A stretch of 49,030 nucleotides of DNA, from the IMG/VR virus record IMGVR_UViG_2721755658_000001. One strand, written 5' to 3'. The notes beneath the pieces were generated by a model. That model was given only the letters and a program-made list of their open reading frames with translations, had not been told where the DNA came from and made no database searches. This document shows, one piece after another, positions 1,641-45,725 of the stretch. The position numbers and the translations under genes are program-made. The stretch comes from a virus. Taxonomy: Duplodnaviria > Heunggongvirae > Uroviricota > Caudoviricetes. How positions within the stretch are numbered: the first letter of the stretch is position 1; every line of letters starts with the position of its first letter.

Positions 1641-4112
1641 TTAAGAATCAGCCTGACTCGGGATCAGTTTTTGCCAGATAGCTGAAACGTATTTTGCCTG
1701 GTAACGGGCGTCATCAAGTGCATTATGGCGCTCACCTTCGAATGGAATAGCCGTTCTGGCATCGAAGTCTATGGCTTTCCCCAGCTCAACGATTGTGCGT
1801 ACATCGCGATCGTTGTAGTAACGCCACGGGCAGGGGATCCCCTGCCGTTCGTATGAACGGCGCAAAATCGTGTTGTCGAAGTTGGCTCCATTTCCCCAGA
1901 CATGAACAAAAAATTCACCGGAGTTTTCGTCGATAAATTCCCGCAATTGTAACAGTGCATCATCTAACGGGATTTCATCGGTCATAATGGCAGATTGCGC
2001 TTCGCGTGATTGTTTAAGCCACCATTTAATGGTGTCCCGATCAATGACTCCGCCAGCAGTTTCCAGATCGATAGTCTTACTAAATTCCGGTCCCATATCT
2101 CCGGTTTGCGGATCGAAAAATATTGCACCTATTGAGATAATCGGGGCATCGGGATTTTTTCCCATGGTTTCAAGGTCGATCATCAGATGAATCCCCGCTC
2201 TGCTGGTGGATGTGAGATTATGATGACCGTTTGCCTTAATTAAGGGATCTGACGCCTCGCCAGTTTCACTATCGCTGGCATGATGCTGATTGCCGCCAGT
2301 GTTCTCCTTGTGCTGATGCGCAGTGCCTTCCATTTCCTCCGGATCATTTTCCTGAACTTCAGGCTGATTCTCTCCATCGAATATTTCCTGGTATGTTGCG
2401 TCACCCATCACCGCACCACAATCAGGGCAGTTGCCGCCACCGCTCTGACCGCAGGCGGTGCAGATCTTTTCCGGTTCCTGTTGCACTACTGGTTCAGGTT
2501 GTTTCGTTTCTGGCTCGTTTTGTTGCGTATTTGGGCTGTTTTGTTCCGCTTTCTGGTCGTTCTGTTCCGTTTCTTGCTGGTTCTGGTTCACAGAATCGCG
2601 GGTCTGGATCCCCTTAATCCATTTCGGATCATTCGGGTCGCTAATCCCTTCAACAAATTCACCACGTGATACTGCAAGCAGTTCATCGGCGTCAGGCTGG
2701 CTGATATTGGCTGCCTGCATAATTTTGTTTACTTCGTCAGCGGTAACTTTTACTGACCCTGGTTGTGCGGTCGTGTCAGATGCACCAGTATTTTGTTGTG
2801 AACCTGAGTATGTACCGTTTTTGCGGGCGAAATATTCTTCTTTCGTGATTTCAGTAGCCCCAGCAGACAGCGCCTTATCCAGACCAGAAAGTTTATTTGC
2901 GCGACCGTATTTTTCGCCATCCTTGTCGGTGAAGAGGAAGTAGAACGGCCCCTCACGTTCTACAGATGGTTCGACTTCCACTTTGCATTCGGTTTTTTCG
3001 TTGTCTGGAATTGCCGTTTCCACTGCATCAGTTTCTGGTACTGGCGACGAGAGAGTATCAGTTGCGCTCTGATTTGTTCCTTCATCTTCAAACACGCCCT
3101 TTGTAGTCAGGTATTCAGTAATGTATTTGTTCAGTGCCACAGGGTCTTTGTGAATGTCGATCGGACGTTCACGGACAAGGCCAAAAATAGTCTGGCGGTC
3201 GTAGCGAAGGGCATCAGGCTGTTTGCGCATTGATGCCGAGATACGCTTCCAGTCTTCGCGGTCGTTGTCGATAACTTCATTTTTTGCCCAGCGATGGATG
3301 CTGCCGTCAATGTTTCCGGCATCCACATCACCAGGCCAGAGAGCGTAGGCCAGTTCGTCATCCAGTGTTTTCCATGTCTGCTTGTATTCGCGATGAATGG
3401 CAGCAATGACCGGGTTGATTTTTCCTGTTGAATTTTCAGTGTGCTGTTGATTGGCTCTGGCGCGGGCGAGATCAACAACAGACGTGTATTTTCCGGCTTC
3501 CTTGCGTTCACCTTCGCGACGTTTTTTCCAGATGCGCATCTCTGCCTGAATTTCGGGCCATTTGGCACCAGGCTTACATTTATGCTTAACCCACCCGATG
3601 GCATGCAGCTTAAGCTCCGGATACATAGCGTTAACTTCTGGCATTTTCATCAACGCTTCAACGATATGGCCGTCGAATGTTGCCATGTCTTCCTGCAACA
3701 ATTCCTGTGCGCTAATCACCATATCAACAGTGATGTTTTCACATGTGTCGAACTTAACCATGACAGCGTTCTGTACTTCAGGGGCTAGGTTGTCAAAAGT
3801 GACGTTCATCGGATCGGATTCAGTCTCGACCGGGACAAAGGAAGCAGACGCCTCATCCCAGCGGTTTTCCTGCATATATTCAGCATCCCAGGAATCGAGG
3901 GCAGGGCGGGGTATACCGGGTTTATCCTCGCAAACAAGAAATTTATAAGCGCAGTCCTGAGCAGCCGGATAATGTTCCAGGAATTGCCAGTGAAATTTTG
4001 CGCGGGCGCGACGTTCATCACCGGCTTCAATGGCAGTGGCTACAGCGACGGCACCTTCTTCCTTTATTGCCTGTTCGTCCGGAATGGCGGCGCAAATAAA
4101 GACTTTACTCAT
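1641..4112 (-). CDS. Exonuclease, 823 aa (RecE/exodeoxyribonuclease VIII-like region plus C-terminal DEDDh-type 3'-5' exonuclease domain)
   Basis: C-terminal motifs DLETMG ... HNALDDARYQAKY typical of DnaQ-like exonucleases; central CxxC..CxxC zinc ribbon; position in early-left operon. Confidence 0.75.
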   Translation of the reverse strand: MSKVFICAAIPDEQAIKEEGAVAVATAIEAGDERRARAKFHWQFLEHYPAAQDCAYKFLVCEDKPGIPRPALDSWDAEYMQENRWDEASASFVPVETESDPMNVTFDNLAPEVQNAVMVKFDTCENITVDMVISAQELLQEDMATFDGHIVEALMKMPEVNAMYPELKLHAIGWVKHKCKPGAKWPEIQAEMRIWKKRREGERKEAGKYTSVVDLARARANQQHTENSTGKINPVIAAIHREYKQTWKTLDDELAYALWPGDVDAGNIDGSIHRWAKNEVIDNDREDWKRISASMRKQPDALRYDRQTIFGLVRERPIDIHKDPVALNKYITEYLTTKGVFEDEGTNQSATDTLSSPVPETDAVETAIPDNEKTECKVEVEPSVEREGPFYFLFTDKDGEKYGRANKLSGLDKALSAGATEITKEEYFARKNGTYSGSQQNTGASDTTAQPGSVKVTADEVNKIMQAANISQPDADELLAVSRGEFVEGISDPNDPKWIKGIQTRDSVNQNQQETEQNDQKAEQNSPNTQQNEPETKQPEPVVQQEPEKICTACGQSGGGNCPDCGAVMGDATYQEIFDGENQPEVQENDPEEMEGTAHQHKENTGGNQHHASDSETGEASDPLIKANGHHNLTSTSRAGIHLMIDLETMGKNPDAPIISIGAIFFDPQTGDMGPEFSKTIDLETAGGVIDRDTIKWWLKQSREAQSAIMTDEIPLDDALLQLREFIDENSGEFFVHVWGNGANFDNTILRRSYERQGIPCPWRYYNDRDVRTIVELGKAIDFDARTAIPFEGERHNALDDARYQAKYVSAIWQKLIPSQADS

Positions 4113-4750: not shown

Positions 4751-4808
4751 AAAAACGGCGGCAGAGCAGTCACGGAGTAAAACTGATACCGCCAAACGTC
4801 ACCAGAAA
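4751..4808 (-). ncRNA. dicF: DicF small regulatory RNA (ftsZ-targeting sRNA of the dicB operon)
   Basis: Reverse complement reads TTTCTGGTGACGTTTGGCGGTATCAGTTTTACTCCGTGACTGCTCTGCCGCCGTTTTT, matching recalled DicF with its terminator hairpin. Confidence 0.85.
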
Positions 4809-5067
4809 ATTGATAACAGAGGGCGTTGCAGCGGGGTTGTCACTTAAGCGTATGGTCAACCTGACAACTCGGTGTCCTCAACGGGGAAGGAATAACCCCG
4901 CCATACTTACCGCCGCGCCATTTCGCGGGTTGCCACAACCGGAAGCGCACGGTCGAATTAAATTTAACGACACCGTACAGTGAGACGAACTTCGCCGTGC
5001 GCTTTCGTGTTGTGTGCCTGCTTTTAACCACGTCAGGCGAGGTGGTATCCTTAAAATCACCACAGTT

Positions 5068-5643
5068 TTAAGGATTCATTAAGCAATGTCGCAACCACCA
5101 ATAAATCCGCTTAAGAACATGAAAATTGATTACTGGTATAAAGCGCTTACAGTTGTTGGCGCTGCGTTGTTTGTCTTTAATGGATCGTCTTTTTTTGACA
5201 GATATCCCGTTGTTCCATTGGGTTTTTTGTCCTCCGGCATCTTTTTTATTGGTTTGGGGGAGTGGATTAATCACCCTCTCAAAGTGAGATTTATTGGTCC
5301 TGGAGTTTGGACTCGTGGATATAATCGTTCTTCGTGCGCACTCGGTATCATCTTCGACATACTTGGTTGTTTCCTGATTGTTACAGGAGTCGTCAAGTTC
5401 TTCTGATGTAAAACCGCAAATGGGGCACGTAACGGGAATTTTGAAAAGCGTTTCTCCGGGTTCCAGAACAAAATTTTCTGCGGTCTGATTTTGCTTCTCA
5501 TATTTGTGCTCCGCGTCATTGTGAGAGCACATTCTTATTCTGAGTGCCTGTTTAAACTCACTGAAGCTGAGAGCTTCTTCGCCTTCGGCAAGACCTTCGA
5601 AGTATTCTTCGTAAGCCTTTTCCATGATTGTGTCGAAATCCAT
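5068..5643 (-). CDS. Hypothetical protein of the dicB operon (YdfB/YdfC region, apparently one fused ORF; CPICG zinc-ribbon motif)
   Basis: ORF starts 1 nt after ydfA stop; N-terminal half acidic and protein-like; C-terminal half overlaps a plus-strand ORF and is less convincing. Confidence 0.45.
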   Translation of the reverse strand: MDFDTIMEKAYEEYFEGLAEGEEALSFSEFKQALRIRMCSHNDAEHKYEKQNQTAENFVLEPGETLFKIPVTCPICGFTSEELDDSCNNQETTKYVEDDTECARRTIISTSPNSRTNKSHFERVINPLPQTNKKDAGGQKTQWNNGISVKKRRSIKDKQRSANNCKRFIPVINFHVLKRIYWWLRHCLMNP

Positions 5644-5644
5644 A

Positions 5645-5800
5645 TCACTCACCTGAGTTTCTTTCCAGCCAGCGACGGGCACCATTTTCGGTTTTAAACG
5701 TTTTGCTTTTGGTATACGTCATCGCGGTGAACGTACCGTCCTGGTTGGGGAACACGCCACATACCAGAGATTCGCTGTTGCCAAGATCGAAAGTATCCAT
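5645..5800 (-). CDS. ydfA: YdfA-like small protein (51 aa), first gene of dicB operon
   Basis: 51-aa ORF with GAGG SD; directly downstream of the operator-containing intergenic region. Confidence 0.65.
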   Translation of the reverse strand: MDTFDLGNSESLVCGVFPNQDGTFTAMTYTKSKTFKTENGARRWLERNSGE

Positions 5801-7347: not shown

Positions 7348-8418
7348 ATGGCTAACGCCTGGCTCAGATTATGGCATGACATGCCAAATGACCCTAAGTG
7401 GCGAACAATTGCCAGGGTGTCAGGGCAGCCAATTGCAACAGTGATGGCAGTGTATATCCACCTCCTGGTGAGCGCGTCACGAAATGTCACGCGAGGTCAC
7501 ATTGATGTCACGACAGAAGATTTAGCAAGTGCGCTCGACGTGACAGAAGAGGTAATTGATTCAATTTTGCAGACGATGCAGGGGCGGGTACTTGATGGTG
7601 ATTTAATCACTGGATGGGAAAAACGCCAGGTGCTGAAAGAGGACAACGGCAATATTTCGCAAACCGCAAAATCTCCTGCAGAGCGCAAGAGGGCGCAGCG
7701 AGAGAGGGAAAGAAAGCGGGAACAAAATGGCGATTGTCACGGCGCGTCACGAAATGTCACGCACATGTCACGACGAGTCACGACAGATAAAGATACAGAT
7801 AAAGATACAGATCAAGAAGATCAAAACACTATGGTCCATGGCGTAAAAAACGCCACGAACCAGGCAGGGGATGTTCAGACCGTCAATCTTGGTCAGCCAG
7901 CAGGCACGACACCGGAAGCCGATTCAGCGTATGCGCTGAAAGCCGATTCGGGCGCTGTGCAGCAGGTGATGACCGCAAGGGCGGAGCAATCACACCAACT
8001 GCAGCAGCCTGAAGCCGATTCCGCCATTCAGCGGGAAGCCGATCGGGTAGTCCCGGAAAACACCGGGCAGTCTGTGGGACGAGTGGATTATCCGGATGTG
8101 TTCGAACAGGTCTGGCGGGAGTACCCGTTGCGTGCTGGGGCAAACCCGAAGAAATCCGCTTTCAGTGCCTGGAAGGCCAGATTACGCGAGGGGGTGCCAC
8201 CAGAGGCCATGCTGGATGGCGTGAGGCGTTACGCAAGATACCTGGCGGCTACCAGGAAAACGGGAACGGAATTTGTTCAGCGAGCTACGACGTTTTTTGG
8301 ACCGGACCGGAATTTTGAAAACCCTTGGTTGCTCCCGGTAAGCGGCACGAACAACCAGCGTTGTGTGAATCATATTTCTGAACCGGATACCGAAATTCCG
8401 CCGGGCTTCAGGGGGTAA
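7348..8418 (+). CDS. Phage replication initiation protein (replisome organizer), contains the candidate origin iterons
   Basis: Position after cro module; SD GAGG upstream of ATG 7348 (ORF opens with GTG at 7342); internal GTCACG iterons; basic/acidic linker. Confidence 0.65.
   Translation: MANAWLRLWHDMPNDPKWRTIARVSGQPIATVMAVYIHLLVSASRNVTRGHIDVTTEDLASALDVTEEVIDSILQTMQGRVLDGDLITGWEKRQVLKEDNGNISQTAKSPAERKRAQRERERKREQNGDCHGASRNVTHMSRRVTTDKDTDKDTDQEDQNTMVHGVKNATNQAGDVQTVNLGQPAGTTPEADSAYALKADSGAVQQVMTARAEQSHQLQQPEADSAIQREADRVVPENTGQSVGRVDYPDVFEQVWREYPLRAGANPKKSAFSAWKARLREGVPPEAMLDGVRRYARYLAATRKTGTEFVQRATTFFGPDRNFENPWLLPVSGTNNQRCVNHISEPDTEIPPGFRG
7476..7818. repeat. Candidate replication origin: two clusters of GTCACG iterons at helical spacing plus tandem 12-bp repeats
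   Basis: GTCACG at 7476, 7486, 7496, 7507 and at 7736, 7746, 7756, 7767, 7777; tandem ACAGATAAAGAT at 7783-7818; A-rich tract follows. Confidence 0.55.
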
Positions 8419-9588: not shown

Positions 9589-10113
9589 ATGGAGAAAACA
9601 TTTATTTCGGAAATATTATCAGCTTATCATCATTTACAATTAGAAAATGCAAATGAAGCAGCCACAAGACTAAAAGTGATAGATCGGGTATTAAAGGAAG
9701 TCTTGATGTGGACTGATAGTGATATAAAACCAGAAGAGCATGTGACTGAAGATGGTTTGACAACTTATGCTGATTATATACTAAAAACAGCTAATATTGC
9801 TCTTGTTGTTGAAGCTAAAAAGGCAGGGCCAAGCTTTAGTACAATTCCAGGAAAAAGAAAAATAAAGCTAAGTAATAGTTTTTTACAAAGTGATCTTGGT
9901 GAAGCGATAATACAAGCTAGAGATTACGCCAGGAAATTTGGTATAGATTATGCTGTCGCTACGAATGGAAATGTATGGGCATGTTTTGCAGCTCAGAGGC
10001 ATGACAATGTCAAATTTAATGATTCAATAGCGCTTGTGTTCTGGTCGTTAGAAGATTGCTTAAATGATAATTATCAAGAATTCTATGATTTACTTAGTCG
10101 TGAAAATGGGTGA
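9589..10113 (+). CDS. N-terminal fragment of IS1-interrupted defence-like gene: PD-(D/E)xK nuclease domain (HsdR-N / Mrr-like)
   Basis: Motif ..ADYILKTANIALVVEAKK.. (D ... EAK); ORF terminates at a stop codon supplied by the IS1 left end. Confidence 0.7.
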   Translation: MEKTFISEILSAYHHLQLENANEAATRLKVIDRVLKEVLMWTDSDIKPEEHVTEDGLTTYADYILKTANIALVVEAKKAGPSFSTIPGKRKIKLSNSFLQSDLGEAIIQARDYARKFGIDYAVATNGNVWACFAAQRHDNVKFNDSIALVFWSLEDCLNDNYQEFYDLLSRENG

Positions 10114-10163
10114 TGCTGCCAACTTACTGATTTAGTGTATGATGGTGTTTTTGAGGTGCTCCA

Positions 10164-10439
10164 GTGGCTTCTGTTTCTATCAGCTGTCCCTCCTGTTCAG
10201 CTACTGACGGGGTGGTGCGTAACGGCAAAAGCACCGCCGGACATCAGCGCTATCTCTGCTCTCACTGCCGTAAAACATGGCAACTGCAGTTCACTTACAC
10301 CGCTTCTCAACCCGGTACGCACCAGAAAATCATTGATATGGCCATGAATGGCGTTGGATGCCGGGCAACAGCCCGCATTATGGGCGTTGGCCTCAACACG
10401 ATTTTACGTCACTTAAAAAACTCAGGCCGCAGTCGGTAA
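10164..10439 (+). CDS. insA: IS1 InsA
   Basis: 91-aa ORF matching IS1 InsA (zinc finger CPSC..CSHC). Confidence 0.95.
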
Positions 10440-10861
10440 CCTCGCGCATACAGCCGGGCAGTGACGTCATCGTCTGCGCGGAAATGGACGAACAGTGGGG
10501 ATACGTCGGGGCTAAATCGCGCCAGCGCTGGCTGTTTTACGCGTATGACAGGCTCCGGAAGACGGTTGTTGCGCACGTATTCGGTGAACGCACTATGGCG
10601 ACGCTGGGGCGTCTTATGAGCCTGCTGTCACCCTTTGACGTGGTGATATGGATGACGGATGGCTGGCCGCTGTATGAATCCCGCCTGAAGGGAAAGCTGC
10701 ACGTAATCAGCAAGCGATATACGCAGCGAATTGAGCGGCATAACCTGAATCTGAGGCAGCACCTGGCACGGCTGGGACGGAAGTCGCTGTCGTTCTCAAA
10801 ATCGGTGGAGCTGCATGACAAAGTCATCGGGCATTATCTGAACATAAAACACTATCAATAA
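10358..10861 (+). CDS. insB: IS1 InsB (transposase, produced as InsAB' by -1 frameshift)
   Basis: 167-aa ORF matching IS1 InsB; slippery TTAAAAAACTC near 10412. Confidence 0.95.
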
Positions 10862-10862
10862 G

Positions 10863-12869
10863 TTGGAGTCATTACCTGAAAATGTTATATCGGGAAGTCT
10901 AGAAACAGCACTTTTAGGTCGCGTCGAAAATCAAATAGAATTTAGAAAATTAAGAAGTTTTTATTCGCAACAAAACAGAACACAGACAAATAATCCAATA
11001 TATCATTTGATTGCTGATGAATTAAGGTTGGCTTTTTCTGATTCTATACTTTACTTGGATGAAGACTCCTTTGATAAATGTTATGTTTCAACACCAGAAA
11101 CTATGAGATTCGATAGTAAAATTAGAATGAATATAGGTAGGCGTTCAAGTGTGCTGAATGGTGAAGTACTAAAAGGGCTTAATGATAAAGATACAAAAAG
11201 AATAGTTGATAAGTTTCAGGTTAAAGGGAAGAAAAAAATAAAAGTCAGAAATGACAAACCTCTCGCGATCTTGTTACTTGGGACTGTAGGTGCAGGTAAA
11301 ACAACATTTCTTCATTACATGAGAAAGGTTAGAATAAAAGAGTTTTTTTCAAATCAATGTGATATCTTGACGCCGCATTGGGTTCATATAGACTTTCTAG
11401 ATAATCCATCAGAAAGTTCAATAGTCGATTTTATTTATAAATCAATTCTGGAATATATCAATAAGCATCCTGTTTTGAGTAATAAGGATTTTGTATTTGA
11501 TGCATTTCGAGAAGATATTGAGGCGATAAAATCAGGACCTCTTTTTTTATTGAGTGAGGATCAAAAAAATACCAGAATCTCGGATTTTTTATATGAGCAA
11601 TATAAAAAGGTAAAACCTTATGTTGATAAAATAATAAGTCGCGTTACAAAAGAGACATCTTTTTTTCTTGTTATTGATAACGTTGATCAGATCGAGTTTG
11701 ATGATATCCAGTCCCGGATATTTACCGAATCATTTTCAATTTCCAGAGCGCTTTCATTAAATTTAGTACTTTCATTGAGGCAGTCTACATTTATCAAACA
11801 TAAAAACTCACCTGCTATAGATGCTTTCGATTTTGAAGTTATACAAATAGATCCACCGAGAATAAGTAGTGTGATTGCAAAACGCTTTGCACTAGTAAAG
11901 TATATGACAAGTAATAAAAGTGGAAATTTTATTGCAGAAAATGGCGCTAAAGTTGTATTGGATGATATATCACAATTAGTCGATATTATTAGTGGGTCTG
12001 TGCTGGGAAGTGAGATTGGAACACGTATTGAAGTTCTTGCTACGGATGATGTTCGATTAGCATTACGTATGACTCGTGAGTTCTTAGAAAGAGGGTATAC
12101 GAGTCCAGGTAAAGCAGTACAAATTTTCAGAGAACAAGGAAGGTATCTTCTTCCACGTCATGAGGCATTTAGAGCTATATTACTGGGTACTGAGTTGACT
12201 TATAGCGAGTCAACGTCGACTATTGCGAACCCGTTTGATTCGAATTTAGCTGTGACACAAATGCAATTATTGAGGCTGTACATTCTTAATGTTATCGTTT
12301 CGTATGCAAGCGATCCCGGATTCAGACAAATCGATGGTTCGGTAATAACTGAAAAGTTAAGGTTAATTGGTATAGGTGACTCTTTCACGCATCGAGTTCT
12401 CGTTGATTTATGCAATAAAAGGTTTTTGTTCACCGTAAATCACGGAGATCCAACAGCTTCATCAAGTTTCATTCCTTCTCGGCTGGGGGGGTATATTGCA
12501 AAAGAACTTATTAGTAATTTCACGTTTATAGAGTGTATGCTTTATGATACATATATTGCTGATGCTAAGGTATGGAGTAGATTAAGAGATCTGAGTGCTA
12601 GAATTGAGTCTGAAAGAGATGTAATAAAAAGGATCACAATGCGTGTAAGTCGAGCAAAAACTTTCTATTATCAAATGGAAAAACTTATTTCACCGCTTTG
12701 TTCCGAAGCTATTATAAGAGGGTTGCCTTCACAATGGTGTTCTAACCCTCTTCAGGAGCGTTTACCTGAGTTAAGAAAAGAACTAAGAAGAGTTCTTAAT
12801 TCTGCAAAAAAAACATATCAACCGAAACAGGATGATTCGTCTAAGTATTTCCTTGATGAAACGGTTTAA
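10863..12869 (+). CDS. C-terminal fragment of IS1-interrupted defence-like gene: STAND/NACHT-like P-loop NTPase plus helical C-terminal domain
   Basis: Walker A LLLGTVGAGKTTFLHYM, Walker B-like FFLVIDNVDQ; first 7 codons derive from the IS1 right end (TTG start); in frame with the upstream fragment once IS1 is removed. Confidence 0.7.
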   Translation: MESLPENVISGSLETALLGRVENQIEFRKLRSFYSQQNRTQTNNPIYHLIADELRLAFSDSILYLDEDSFDKCYVSTPETMRFDSKIRMNIGRRSSVLNGEVLKGLNDKDTKRIVDKFQVKGKKKIKVRNDKPLAILLLGTVGAGKTTFLHYMRKVRIKEFFSNQCDILTPHWVHIDFLDNPSESSIVDFIYKSILEYINKHPVLSNKDFVFDAFREDIEAIKSGPLFLLSEDQKNTRISDFLYEQYKKVKPYVDKIISRVTKETSFFLVIDNVDQIEFDDIQSRIFTESFSISRALSLNLVLSLRQSTFIKHKNSPAIDAFDFEVIQIDPPRISSVIAKRFALVKYMTSNKSGNFIAENGAKVVLDDISQLVDIISGSVLGSEIGTRIEVLATDDVRLALRMTREFLERGYTSPGKAVQIFREQGRYLLPRHEAFRAILLGTELTYSESTSTIANPFDSNLAVTQMQLLRLYILNVIVSYASDPGFRQIDGSVITEKLRLIGIGDSFTHRVLVDLCNKRFLFTVNHGDPTASSSFIPSRLGGYIAKELISNFTFIECMLYDTYIADAKVWSRLRDLSARIESERDVIKRITMRVSRAKTFYYQMEKLISPLCSEAIIRGLPSQWCSNPLQERLPELRKELRRVLNSAKKTYQPKQDDSSKYFLDETV

Positions 12870-13716
12870 AAGATGGGGCTAGTATGCCCCATGCTATTAT
12901 CTTACTAAAATAAATTTGGAAGTGCTGTTACAATAGATAGAGGCTCATTGTCGAGTCTCTGTTTAAATTAGTTGGTTATTTTATGTTTATTTGTTTCGAT
13001 ATCAAATAAAAAATCAATAAAGACAGCTTTGTTGCTAGTATTTAATTCTGTAGTAATATACGGATAGTTGTTTTCTGATATACCACATATCTTTAATTGT
13101 TGGTTTTTGTCTTAGTTGATTTAAATTCAACCAACCACTCCAGCAACCTAAATATTCCTCCAGTTCCAAACAATGAATATATGATCAGGAGCATAGCACT
13201 GCTCTTCATTAAAAATTTACACTTAGTTTTGAGAAAACTGCTTACGTTATCTTAACTCTGAATTTGTATATCTTAAGAAGTGCTAGTTATATTTAGTTGT
13301 TGTGTTCCATGTTTTACAGAAAAATCAGAGAAACTGTACTCAATAGTTGCATCTCATCACTGATGAGACCGCCTTGTATTTATCAAGACTGGTGTACGTC
13401 CGATACAGAAAGTTGTCGTGCTGGTCCTCAAATGTGCGCTGGCTATTGCGGGTAATGGCAATTTATTGTCTTGCTATTGTCCTTATGGATCGCCTTTCTG
13501 ATTGATTTTATATTGGCGAGGTAACGGGAGTTAAGTACAATGGCTGCGGGTGCTTGAGGCTATCTGTCTCAGGCATGAACACCAAAGGCAGATAGAGAAA
13601 AGCCCCAGTTAACATTACGCGTCCGGCAAGACGCTTAACATTAATCTGAGGCCAATTTCATGCTTTGCACATGTAGGTTAGCCTCTTACGTGCCGAAAGG
13701 CAAGGAGAAGCAGGCT

Positions 13717-13872
13717 ATGAAGCAGCAAAAGGCGATGTTAATCGCCCTGATCGTCATCTGTTTAACCGTCATAGTGACGGCACTGGTAACGAGGAAAGAC
13801 CTCTGCGAGGTACGAATCCGAACCGGCCAGACGGAGGTCGCTGTCTTCACAGTCTACGAACCTGAGGAGTAA
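13717..13872 (+). CDS. hokD: Hok-family type I toxin (51 aa), HokD/RelF-like
   Basis: MKQQKAMLIALIVICLTVIVTALVTRKDLCEVRIRTGQTEVAVFTVYEPEE; SD AGGAGA 8 nt upstream. Confidence 0.85.
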   Translation: MKQQKAMLIALIVICLTVIVTALVTRKDLCEVRIRTGQTEVAVFTVYEPEE

Positions 13873-16558: not shown

Positions 16559-17101
16559 TGCTTTAAATGGGGCAATAGAGATATTGAATCTCATCCCGGG
16601 ATAAACATTGGCAGTTGAAGGTCCACGCGAACCATTTATCCGGCAAAATTCCACGCGTAATCCTGTGGTAATTTCTTCTGCATCTCGAAGATTGAGAGCT
16701 GAAACGTGAAGCTGGGCATCGATACGCCATCGGATGGGAATATAAGACCTTTGCTGCTTTTGTAGTCAAAGTTTTTGACAATTCCTGTCATTTTAGGGGA
16801 CAGAAAAACTCCTTAATACTGATAACCTGGTGCACCATACACACGTTCCTGGAGAAAACTACTTTTTTGATAGGGTTGAAGGTGGCTGGATGTCTAAAAT
16901 AAACATTGCTTCATATGTTCAACTATGAGTTAATGACTGCGTCGGTTTGAAGAACAGACGATATACGAAGTAGTTTACTAAAGCAGTTCTCATTTCAGGT
17001 GTTATTCACTTATTCCTTCTTTGAGTCTCTCCAATTAAGTACGAAGTCGTTTCTGTTATGCAAACCATTTATGCCGAAAGGCTCAAGTTAAGGAATGTAG
17101 A

Positions 17102-17317
17102 ATGTCAAATAAAATGACTGGTTTAGTAAAATGGTTTAACGCTGATAAAGGTTTCGGCTTTATTTCTCCTGTTGATGGTAGTAAAGATGTGTTTGTGCAT
17201 TTTTCTGCGATTCAGAATGATAATTATCGAACCTTATTTGAAGGTCAAAAGGTTACCTTCTCTATAGAGAGTGGTGCTAAAGGTCCTGCAGCAGCAAATG
17301 TCATCATTACTGATTAA
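17102..17317 (+). CDS. cspB: Cold-shock protein CspB
   Basis: 71-aa CspA-family protein [38 protein letters not shown].. Confidence 0.9.
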
Positions 17318-17597
17318 AATTCATCGCTCGTCTGTATACGATAACGAAGAAGGCTGATGCCTGAGTAGAGATACGGACAGAGTAGTGAATATTGGATCTC
17401 TTTAATGAAAATTAAGGAGGTCCAATACATGAAACAATGGCCAGCATATTTGGCAAAATCTTAATCAGGAAAAGTATGCTAACCATTGTGGTGAAGTGCA
17501 GGTTTGCTGCATGAATAGTTTTACAGCAGAAGCTAACTGCTGGCATGGCAAAACAAAGTGCGTAAGTGGATGACTCCCACAAAAAGCACCACAATCT

Positions 17598-20191: not shown

Positions 20192-20554
20192 ATTAATATT
20201 AAATCGGATTATTTTTAGCGCTGAATGTGAAATTTAAATAAAAAGGACTCTTCCATGAGTCAATATCCTTGAAATCTTAAGGGTAAGATAAAAGGTCATT
20301 AGACAGAATGACACGTTTTATTAATAAATAAAGCTATTGTTTCATTCGTGTGTTTTTCTTTACAAAAGTAATCCTTGCTATGGTTGGTTAATCATGCGTT
20401 AATGGTGTTCTGGTTTGTTACAAAATTATCTGAAGCAGTCATTGTTATAATTTTATTATTTGTACCTCTTGAGATTTCCTTGTTGGTTTTTCTCTTTGAT
20501 ATTTTTTTTCGGACCATTCTGCCCAAGGGCTAACTTCTTCAAAAGGTAATAATG

Positions 20555-20767
20555 ATGTCTAACAAAATGACTGGTTTAGTGAAATGGTTTAACCCTGAAA
20601 AAGGTTTTGGTTTCATCACGCCGAAAGATGGTAGCAAAGATGTGTTTGTGCATTTCTCAGCTATTCAGAGCAACGATTTCAAAACGTTAACTGAGAATCA
20701 GGAAGTCGAATTTGGTATTGAGAACGGACCTAAAGGCCCTGCAGCTGTTCATGTAGTGGCACTTTGA
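20555..20767 (+). CDS. cspI: Cold-shock protein CspI
   Basis: [70 protein letters not shown]. Confidence 0.9.
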
Positions 20768-20971
20768 GGTAGAAAATATTACAAACCATATTCACTTTAG
20801 ATGCCCGTGTTGCCATGGTTCTCAGTATAGAACATCATCTTTTGATGTTTCTGACAGAAATCCTTTCGGGGCAAAATGTATCTTTTGTAAATCAATGATG
20901 ATTACATTTGATAATATTTCACAATACTTAAATGTTAGCCATCTGTCGTTAGATTTAAGAAAGTGAAAATG

Positions 20972-45150: not shown

Positions 45151-45725
45151 TGGCATTCAGAATGAGTGAACAACCACGGACCATAAAAATTTATAATCTG
45201 CTGGCCGGAACTAATGAATTTATTGGTGAAGGTGATGCATATATTCCGCCTCATACAGGTCTGCCAGCAAACAGTACCGATATTGCACCGCCAGATATTC
45301 CGGCTGGCTTCGTGGCTGTTTTCAACAGTGATGAGTCATCGTGGCATCTCGTTGAAGATCATCGGGGTAAAACGGTTTATGACGTGGCTTCCGGCGACGC
45401 GTTATTTATTTCTGAACTCGGTCCGTTACCGGAAAATGTTACCTGGTTATCGCCGGAAGGGGAGTTTCAGAAGTGGAACGGTACAGTCTGGGTGAAGGAT
45501 ACGGAAGCAGAAAAACTGTTCCGGATCCGGGAGGCGGAAGAAACAAAAAACAGCCTGATGCAGGTAGCCAGTGAGCATATAGCGCCACTTCAGGATGCTG
45601 TAGATCTGGAAATCGCAACGGAGGAAGAAACCTCATTGCTGGAAGCCTGGAAAAAGTATCGGGTGTTGCTGAACCGTGTTGATACATCAACTGCACAGGA
45701 TATTGAATGGCCAGCACTGCCGTAG
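45150..45725 (+). CDS. tfa: Tail fibre assembly protein
   Basis: 191 aa; overlaps stf stop. Confidence 0.85.

Follow-up and report, generated by a model that had tools for sequence, protein, structure and literature searches.

An IS1-interrupted single-gene member of the DS-14 family, very probably an anti-phage defence gene, in a Caudoviricetes prophage

Judged by sequence comparison, a gene in the 49,030-nucleotide stretch of viral DNA analyzed here (IMG/VR record IMGVR_UViG_2721755658_000001; hereafter the window) is a broken new member of the already known DS-14 family. The locus is very probably a mobile, single-gene anti-phage system that has been inactivated by an IS1 element and that, when intact, most likely acts as an ATP-gated nuclease.

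The gene is present as two open reading frames (ORFs) on the plus strand, at 9589..10113 (174 aa) and 10863..12869 (668 aa). Removal of IS1 and one copy of the flanking repeat in silico results in an ORF of 2505 nt (834 codons) with zero internal stops, in which the protein reads ..LSREN before the junction and VISGSLE.. after it. The repaired 834-aa protein shares 100% identity with P0121 (WP_112869014.1), an intact protein recorded from 70 public contigs, including E. coli GF3-3. Since both agree residue for residue, the in-frame joining cannot be attributed to chance. The IS-free arrangement is also found in all seven gene-carrying genomes (99.5-100% nucleotide identity) out of 5426 complete E. 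coli genomes searched. An earlier, sequence-only reading of this DNA had described two same-strand frames parted by IS1, which rejoin in frame into 834 aa once the element is removed, and had proposed a search for IS-free alleles elsewhere in E. coli; the repair, the identity to P0121 and the empty site in GF3-3 prove this description right in every detail, and the seven genomes supply the alleles.

The 5' part of the gene (9589..10108) holds codons 1-173, the first base of codon 174 and with these the entire PD-(D/E)xK domain, including the catalytic residues D62 (9772-9774) and E75-A-K77 (9811-9819). The 3' part (10885..12869) runs from the final two bases of codon 174 through the stop, likewise on the plus strand. 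Left unrepaired, the 5' ORF reads 5 bases of IS1 and stops at 10113; the TTG at 10863, the listed start of the 3' ORF, lies inside the IS1 end and is a product of mechanical ORF calling. Four bases past the stop a GC-rich hairpin with a T-rich tail (12873..12892, plus strand) matches the terminator consensus only; terminator-like sites are no more frequent in this region than expected by chance, and the hairpin is suggestive by position alone. A promoter scan upstream of the gene gave no convincing promoter (matches not above chance) and an Rfam search found no RNA elements beside it.

The inserted element (10109..10876, plus strand) shows all characteristics by which IS1 is generally recognized: a length of 768 bp, terminal inverted repeats of ~23 bp, insA and insB frames, and a target duplication of 8-9 bp. 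It begins with GGTGATGCTGCCAACTTACTGAT and finishes with ...AAGTTGGAGTCATTACC, which together form the imperfect inverted ends. Inside the element, and on the same strand, lie insA (10164..10439; Pfam matches Zn_ribbon_InsA 1.3e-21 and HTH_Tnp_IS1 4.7e-31) and the insB frame (10358..10861), and the IS1 transposase is matched by DDE_Tnp_IS1 (2.3e-78). The target-site duplication TGAAAATG flanks the element as an 8-bp direct repeat (left copy 10101..10108, right copy 10877..10884) and is present once in the empty site of E. coli GF3-3. According to a search for IS1 ends the element occurs once in the window. Its GC content is 53%, against 34% in the defence gene.

IS1 has entered at the exact boundary between the nuclease domain and the remaining protein. 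As it thereby parts nuclease from ATPase, the allele in the window has almost certainly lost its function. Once repaired, the sequence does not differ from an intact allele, and this speaks for a recent insertion. The disrupted allele is absent among the 5426 complete E. coli genomes, and the exact IS1 junction has no match in the GTDB species representatives. At other loci, DS-14-type genes have been disrupted independently. Being a recent IS1 pseudogene, the window gene should be left out of counts of active defence systems.

Precisely because the cut falls at the domain boundary, it might be argued that the two fragments (the 174-aa nuclease and the ATPase) still cooperate like the products of two-gene nuclease-NTPase operons, of which complex-forming examples are described (10.1101/2025.07.10.664194). 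The insertion indeed lies between the folded nuclease domain (which ends around residue 170) and the linker, and apart from IS1 both fragments are free of mutations. Nonetheless we consider such cooperation very unlikely. It is not evident where translation of the downstream fragment would begin (its listed start, TTG at 10863, belongs to the IS1 end, with no ribosome-binding site to be seen), and IS1 insertions are usually polar. In addition, the 174-aa product is recorded nowhere else, which indicates that the fragment arrangement has not spread.

A full-length AF2 model (pLDDT 85.4, pTM 0.83) was made on a 93%-identical relative (P0001) as a stand-in for the repaired protein, whereas the nuclease domain was modelled from the window's own N-terminal ORF. 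Residues 1-170 match the fold of PD-(D/E)xK nucleases of the HsdR/type IIG type. In the P0001 model these are followed by a linker (residues 174-295), an AAA+ core (296-499; nt 11250-11861) that is also supported by structural matches, a lid (500-610; nt 11862-12194), a winged helix (~655-712; nt 12327-12500) and a helical tail (713-834), all encoded on the plus strand. Walker A (G306-T-V-G-A-G-K312-T-T; 11280..11306) has invariant G306, G309, G311 and K312, and the Walker B strand (FFLVID438-N-V-D441-Q; 11661..11690) has invariant D438, N439 and D441. Together with D62, E75 and K77, these Walker residues are invariant in 58 family members, down to 20% identity. Both the nuclease motifs and the Walker motifs pointed out in the sequence-only reading are thus real, and the corresponding PD-(D/E)xK fold and P-loop NTPase are present.

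Two arginines deserve attention. R564 (12054..12056, plus strand) is invariant, is part of the lid motif DDVRLALRMTREF and lies in the first part of the modelled lid helix 563-576; it is a candidate AAA+ sensor-2 arginine, and the motif presumably resembles the GDAR-type motif of Cdc6/ORC. R472 is nearly invariant in the 58-member alignment and is located at the end of strand beta-4 in the P0001 model, which we take to be the position of the sensor-1 arginine in STAND proteins. The same model has a helical insertion of ~90 residues from beta-2 to Walker B, at what we assume to be the position of the initiator-specific motif; its helices 353-430 are inserted in a soluble, confidently modelled domain. 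Past the AAA+ core just ~330 residues follow (lid, winged helix and helical tail, with ~120 residues past the winged helix), and the sensor-like tail that had been proposed earlier is, in the model, no Avs-type repeat sensor. Across the family, variation is greatest in the linker, winged helix and tail. Structural matches of the ATPase are best for Cdc6/ORC/TnsC, with NLRs next. All Pfam matches of the repaired protein stay below threshold. A profile search against solved structures returned just generic P-loop matches (G-alpha, IF2), which were discarded as not meaningful.

Evidence for a defensive role comes from DS-14 itself (E. coli WP_040091717.1, 816 aa, working name RMOR), reported in the DefensePredictor study (Science 2026; PMC13092281) and flagged there as TRUE for both defensive and replicated. 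For the plaque assays the gene was cloned together with its native promoter into a low-copy plasmid in E. coli MG1655; the log10 protection came to 4.70 for Bas50, 3.70 for Candy (a T-even phage) and 1.15 for RB69; among the matches listed these are 3 of the 24 panel phages, all of them large myoviruses (PMC13092281). The authors annotate a PDDEXK domain at 27-167 and an AAA+ (ORC1) domain at 270-569, and their HHblits comparison of DS-14 with bNACHT09 has a probability of 99 (PMC13092281). No mechanism has been published for DS-14. As a proxy for DS-14 we used P0089, which is 99.7% identical over the 399 N-terminal DS-14 residues compared. P0121 and P0089 align collinearly with 47% identity over 820 residues (748 bits, 11 gap positions or 1%); via this proxy the homology to DS-14 extends over the full length, and the build is the same as well (one gene, with PD-(D/E)xK at the N-terminus followed by an ORC-like AAA+ ATPase).

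Two claims of the earlier reading are affected by this result. The proposal that this prophage gene acts on its own in anti-phage defence gains support, as the 47%-identical homologue protected E. coli MG1655, whereas the statement that no family could be named no longer holds, the family being that of DS-14. It should be noted that 47% identity is no guarantee of equal activity or phage range; as divergence is strongest in linker, winged helix and tail, the phage range may differ from that of DS-14. PADLOC v2 and NCBIfam gave no family-level match for the repaired protein. Over the 58 relatives PADLOC reported only DrmMI, mad8, type IIG and some candidate (PDC) families, each in at most 15 members, and the main matches are taken as matches to the nuclease domain. 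Kaur et al. 2020 do not mention the architecture.

Genomic context bears on the question whether the gene is defensive at all. In the window it directly follows a replication initiator/replisome-organiser gene and a DUF977 gene, and its ATPase is nearest to replication initiators, so one could assign the protein to the replication module of the prophage, as an ORC/Cdc6-like initiator or loader that carries a nuclease and assists phage replication or recombination. We regard this as extremely improbable. Besides the protection obtained with DS-14, the gene is missing from almost all related prophages (7 carriers among the 5426 genomes), its GC content (34%, against 48.6% for the window) lies 14 points under that of its surroundings, and the prophage keeps its own replication initiator and helicase-loader gene. 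In a Rac-like prophage the gene is antisense to the replication operon, and further copies are located at the end of a (filamentous) Pf prophage, in an ICE-like (PRTRC) island, on conjugative IncF plasmids and as a lone islet in the chromosome. On the basis of DS-14 protection, rarity, low GC and mobile contexts, the identity as a replication protein was rejected.

Relatives with 93% identity reside on IncF plasmids of Klebsiella, Enterobacter and Serratia, and the family comprises 586 clusters (50% identity, E < 1e-30); among deposited phage genomes no carrier was found at megablast level. The window gene and the P0089 gene each lie directly beside a DUF977 gene of a lambdoid prophage, with a different neighbour on the other side. 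In every context examined it is a lone gene, and no modification gene is adjacent; in a Cupriavidus island an N6_Mtase gene is found ~2.5 kb downstream, on the opposite strand and with other genes between.

From these observations a mechanism can be proposed for the intact system. The effector would be the HsdR/type IIG-type PD-(D/E)xK DNA nuclease, and the AAA+ ATPase with its lid and winged helix would serve as nucleotide-gated switch and assembly module. In the uninfected cell the protein would be kept off, with no methyltransferase partner that protects self DNA. An infection cue, we infer, is sensed either by the ATPase module or through the variable regions (linker, winged helix, tail); ATP-dependent assembly would then gather the nuclease domains, presumably by oligomerisation, and DNA would be cut, with phage restriction or abortive infection as the probable result.

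The ATPase takes an intermediate position, with the initiator clade (ORC/Cdc6/TnsC) on one side and the STAND/NLR clade on the other. According to one explanation of the cue, plausible though short of an even chance, a specific phage protein binds the winged helix and tail; STAND-type oligomerisation would follow, DNA would be cleaved indiscriminately and infection aborted, as in Avs/bNACHT systems. This fits the layout of the single chain (effector at the N-terminus, NTPase in the centre, variable region at the C-terminus), the nearly invariant R472 and the Pfam matches among the 58 members (nSTAND5 in 24, NACHT in 14), as well as the narrow range of DS-14 (3 of 24 panel phages among the matches listed). 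A remote relationship to STAND/bNACHT is likely on sequence grounds, as the HHblits result links DS-14 to bNACHT09. Nonetheless, for the repaired protein NACHT stays under its gathering score (18.6 vs 26.7 bits) and nSTAND5 under its cut-off (15 vs 34); ORC, Cdc6 and TnsC outscore every NLR; the effector is never swapped in the best 150 relatives, unlike in Avs families; and no repeat or large sensor domain follows the winged helix. With the 400-aa criterion of PMC13581612, a large C-terminal sensor (TPR, LRR, WD40 or other of at least 400 aa) is absent in the model, and neither the repaired protein nor the 58 relatives match a Pfam repeat family. In length, moreover, the C-terminal region falls far short of the sensors known from Avs or bNACHT proteins. 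Of the sequence-only reading the defence part stands, while the NLR/NACHT label is only approximate.

Alternatively, the ORC/Cdc6/TnsC-like module could assemble on a feature of phage DNA, after which the HsdR-type nuclease cuts independently of any methyltransferase; we deem this possible but doubtful. Candidate features are modified bases, ends and replication intermediates. The winged helix after the lid, as in Cdc6/Orc1, and the insertion ahead of Walker B point in this direction, and ATP-coupled type I, IIG and ISP enzymes employ a nuclease of the same type. Moreover, T-even phages, whose DNA is hypermodified, make up two of the three phages affected by DS-14. For Bas50 (Vequintavirus), on the other hand, we know of no DNA hypermodification, a conserved basic patch is not identifiable from the protein sequence and the discrimination between self and non-self is left unexplained; a T4 row for DS-14 is also missing among the matches listed in PMC13092281. 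A stricter form, which appears rather unlikely, is that the protein is a true initiator-clade AAA+ ATPase and not an NLR, so that DS-14-type systems would constitute a distinct, methylation-independent class of restriction in which assembly on a DNA feature licenses the fused nuclease. Such assembly would proceed on DNA as for TnsC or ORC, and no receptor for a phage protein would be involved.

For the DS-14 family as a whole, the window protein adds a second, divergent subfamily (47% identity to DS-14); validation of this defence system has so far come from plaque assays only. Given the fixed architecture and the invariant nuclease and ATPase sites, a mechanism established for one member should transfer to the others. 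As the ATPase lies at the boundary of ORC/Cdc6 and STAND, the choice between protein and DNA sensing bears on how NLR-like switches relate to DNA-loading AAA+ machines.

Compared to known systems, the protein combines familiar parts in a different manner. With HsdR, BpuSI and DrdV it shares the nuclease fold, but it has no SF2 translocase, methyltransferase or specificity subunit (neither the repaired protein nor the 58 relatives have a Pfam match to a helicase or MTase domain). RdrA (RADAR), KAP NTPases and BrxC (BREX) are likewise defence-associated P-loop ATPases with large helical insertions, whereas the window gene lacks a partner deaminase or BREX genes and carries its own nuclease; the KAP_NTPase Pfam family matches 13 of the 58 relatives and not the repaired protein, and the model gives no sign of a transmembrane insertion. 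The order of AAA+ base, lid and winged helix, with a helical insertion ahead of Walker B, resembles in the model that of Cdc6/Orc1 and TnsC, although identity is just 10-16%, the window protein is fused to a nuclease and its context suggests no role in replication or transposition. Like the window protein, in which residues 1-170 form the effector, Avs and bNACHT proteins join a nuclease effector at the N-terminus to a central NTPase switch in one polypeptide, and are also mobile and defence-associated. Unlike these, the window protein has no large repeat sensor, is about half the size of Avs1-4, belongs to a family with a fixed effector and has the invariant R564 in the lid, at the position expected of an AAA+ sensor-2 residue; STAND structures are not its closest structural relatives, ORC/Cdc6 and other replication initiators and transposition ATPases being the better fold match. 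DS-14 and the window protein belong to separate subfamilies (816 vs 834 aa), their genes have opposite orientations relative to the phage operon and only the window copy is interrupted by IS1, but both are encoded by a single gene adjoining a DUF977 gene of a lambdoid prophage and both run from PD-(D/E)xK through AAA+ to winged helix and tail, with the same catalytic and Walker residues.

The two same-strand ORFs at 9589..10113 and 10863..12869 (plus strand, from ORF calling) are parted by a 768-base element (10109..10876) whose terminal sequences are IS1 ends and which codes for InsA and the DDE transposase of IS1 (Pfam E-values 1e-21 to 2e-78). A search of the window gives a single IS1 end match, at this element. 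On either side stands the direct repeat TGAAAATG (10101-10108 and 10877-10884). The ORFs and IS1 lie where a previous sequence-only reading had placed them, and the 8-bp duplication that it named is confirmed. In-silico deletion of IS1 and one repeat copy yields a stop-free ORF of 2505 nt (834 codons), matching the in-frame product of about 834 aa proposed there. The repaired protein is identical across all 834 residues to P0121, an intact protein recorded on 70 public contigs. The gene is uninterrupted in 7 complete E. coli genomes (99.5-100% nucleotide identity), and in each of them the two halves of the query overlap by exactly the 8-bp repeat. The IS-free allele of E. coli GF3-3, WP_112869014.1, matches the repaired ORF in full, and the empty site in the GF3-3 prophage reads ...GTCGTGAAAATGTTATATC... 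Together, the identity to P0121, the seven uninterrupted genomes and this empty site are decisive for a single gene split by IS1.

The insertion looks recent, given that the repaired allele carries no further change with respect to the intact one. No second IS1-split allele is present among 5426 complete E. coli genomes, the IS1 junction has no exact match in the GTDB species representatives, and no other record of the 174-aa 5' product was found. The element lies precisely at the junction of nuclease and linker and thereby uncouples the effector from its switch. The 3' fragment is without a credible translation start: its TTG (10863) falls within the end of IS1. On sequence grounds we consider the locus inactive in the window; it would be very surprising if the two fragments kept residual activity as a split system.

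Where the sequence-only reading had named no family, similarity places the gene as a further, disrupted member of the recently validated DS-14 family. PADLOC v2 (2023) and NCBIfam hold no model for the protein, PHROGs lists it as phrog_14719 ('unknown function') and its RefSeq name is 'hypothetical protein'. Tables S6-S8 of DefensePredictor contain the 816-aa E. coli protein WP_040091717.1 (working name 'RMOR', published name DS-14) under the category 'remote defense homolog', with defensive and replicated both TRUE (PMC13092281). Over the 399 N-terminal residues printed there it is 99.7% identical to P0089, a protein from the homologue search that served as proxy. P0089 in turn aligns collinearly with the repaired window protein at 47% identity over 820 residues, 11 positions (1%) being gaps. 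Cloned into MG1655 on a low-copy plasmid with the native promoter retained, DS-14 is tabulated with plating drops of 10^4.70 for Bas50, 10^3.70 for Candy and 10^1.15 for RB69 (PMC13092281). Candy is phiLS50-11, of the Tevenvirinae, and Bas50 is a Vequintavirus. The 47%-identical homologue blocks large lytic myoviruses, and this protection in plating supports the reading of the window gene as a single-protein defence. In the same tables the authors' HHpred matches are PDDEXK (BpuSI_N, 27-167, probability 0.99) and an AAA+ ATPase (ORC1, 270-569, probability 0.99), while HHblits leads to bNACHT09 (probability 99, 54% coverage) (PMC13092281). Mechanism is not examined in the paper or its preprint, and DS-14 is named there solely as a PD-(D/E)xK protein that has a large additional domain (PMC13092281). 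The residual interest of the locus is how the DS-14 family works.

The AlphaFold2 model, built for the 93%-identical cluster representative with 65 homologues, is confident (pLDDT 85.4, pTM 0.83), and conservation was scored over 58 relatives, down to 20% identity. Residues 1-170 form an alpha-beta-beta-beta-alpha-beta PD-(D/E)xK core in which E23, R27, E49, D62, Y63, E75, K77 and Q109 are invariant; D62, E75 and K77 bear out the N-terminal nuclease recognized earlier. A weakly conserved helical linker (174-295) leads to the P-loop core (296-499). Here the Walker A (GxxGxGK312T) and Walker B (D438-N-x-D441) motifs, both also spotted from sequence, are invariant, R472 at the end of strand 4 is nearly so, and a helical insertion of ~90 residues separates strand 2 from Walker B. 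The lid (500-610) has an invariant R564 within the motif DDVRLALRMTREF, and is followed by a winged helix (about 655-705) and a variable helical tail to residue 820. One mobile protein thereby joins a restriction-type nuclease to an AAA+ ATPase, and the active sites of both are strictly conserved.

Structural comparison of the ATPase region places the NLR-type proteins ZAR1 (9.8), NRC2, EfAvs5 (9.5), CED-4 (9.5), RdrA (9.4) and NLRP9 (9.2) behind ORC, Cdc6 and TnsC, and Foldseek ranks the relatives in the same order. Among the 58 relatives, Pfam matches are to AAA_16 (38), AAA_22 (28), nSTAND_NTPase5 (24), NACHT (14) and KAP_NTPase (13), all five of which remain below the Pfam threshold for the window protein itself. 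Given this ranking and match pattern, the ATPase is an AAA+ module bordering the initiator clade and STAND, and no clear NACHT. Of the STAND/NACHT-like assignment made earlier, a remote bNACHT link is likely, but likeness to ORC/Cdc6 is at least equal.

A profile search against 1.84 billion cluster representatives finds 2074 relatives with E < 1e-3, of which 586 have E < 1e-30. The top matches almost all measure 800-870 aa and align from nuclease through tail, with no effector swap among the best 150. The traits of the gene are those of mobile defence cargo: GC content is low (34% against 48.6% for the window), it is rare (7 of the 5426 complete E. coli genomes, with DS-14 proper in 8), and it stands alone in every context examined. 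The window and GF3-3 copies are each part of a Qin/DicB-like lambdoid prophage, with a replication initiator/replisome organiser and DUF977 on one side and hok/sok, DUF968 and Q on the other. P0089 adjoins DUF977 in a Rac-like prophage, antisense to the phage operon, with nin-region DUF1367 and YbcO on its other flank. The Cupriavidus member is found in a PRTRC-type island, and that of Aeromonas is a lone gene separating a T6SS cluster from thrABC. In P. aeruginosa the gene occupies the end of a Pf filamentous prophage; ORFs of 97 and 231 aa (7875-8168 and 8251-8946 on contig L007), neither with a Pfam match, precede it on the same strand and may be either its partners or genes of the prophage. 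Klebsiella and Enterobacter carry copies of 93% identity on IncF conjugative plasmids, and so does Serratia marcescens (pCAV1492-199, NZ_CP011641.1, 4001-7571), where the gene is broken by IS903B after about residue 634. This is an inactivation in the same gene family independent of the IS1 event. One E. coli copy of DS-14 proper, in strain C8, has its annotation divided between two ORFs (both hypothetical proteins). Insertion or frameshift thus destroys the gene repeatedly (NZ_CP011641.1, NZ_CP029448.1), which fits a defence gene that is costly to keep.

Rfam matches in the window comprise DicF (4756-4807, minus strand) and, on the plus strand, sok antitoxin RNA (13548-13722, adjoining the hok ORF at 13660-13872), two cspA-type 5'UTR thermoregulators (16941-17333 and 20408-20813) and the IS009 sRNA (45493-45691), which marks a Qin/DicB-like lambdoid prophage with small-RNA and cold-shock-type morons. 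Most of the early region is 95-99.6% identical to the GF3-3 prophage. One difference is a block around 5025-5543, overlapped by a minus-strand ORF (5068-5685; 205 aa, phrog_35040, function not assigned) that has no Pfam match. The other is the end of aligned homology after DUF968 (15660 onward), where the Q antiterminator is the next ORF in the window whereas GF3-3 has RusA in between. No tRNA genes were found in the window; GF3-3 carries tRNA-Ile and tRNA-Arg after Q. An 823-aa exonuclease gene (1641-4112, minus strand, phrog_2082) is intact in the window; the GF3-3 annotation gives its counterpart as a pseudogene containing an internal stop.

As the nuclease has no modification partner, it would have to be kept inactive until infection. 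The ATPase, lid and winged helix may constitute a nucleotide-gated assembly switch of the kind found in NLRs and in ORC, Cdc6 and TnsC; ATP-dependent assembly would then be expected to let the nuclease domains meet and so license DNA cleavage. A protein trigger sensed with NLR-like logic is a plausible if tentative proposal, consistent with the narrow range of phages listed for DS-14 in the DefensePredictor tables, the order of effector, NTPase and variable tail, and the remote bNACHT similarity. The very short C-terminus argues against it, and the sensor-like tail that the sequence-only reading likened to Avs is not borne out. A DNA-directed mechanism, which we regard as somewhat less likely, would agree with the better structural match to AAA+ proteins that load onto DNA, the winged helix, the very short C-terminus, the HsdR-type nuclease and the position of the helical insertion, which we take to be the initiator-specific motif site of initiator-clade AAA+ proteins.

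Avs proteins possess a large C-terminal sensor whereas the window protein is without a sensor of that type, and its NTPase is at least as similar to ORC/Cdc6 as to STAND.
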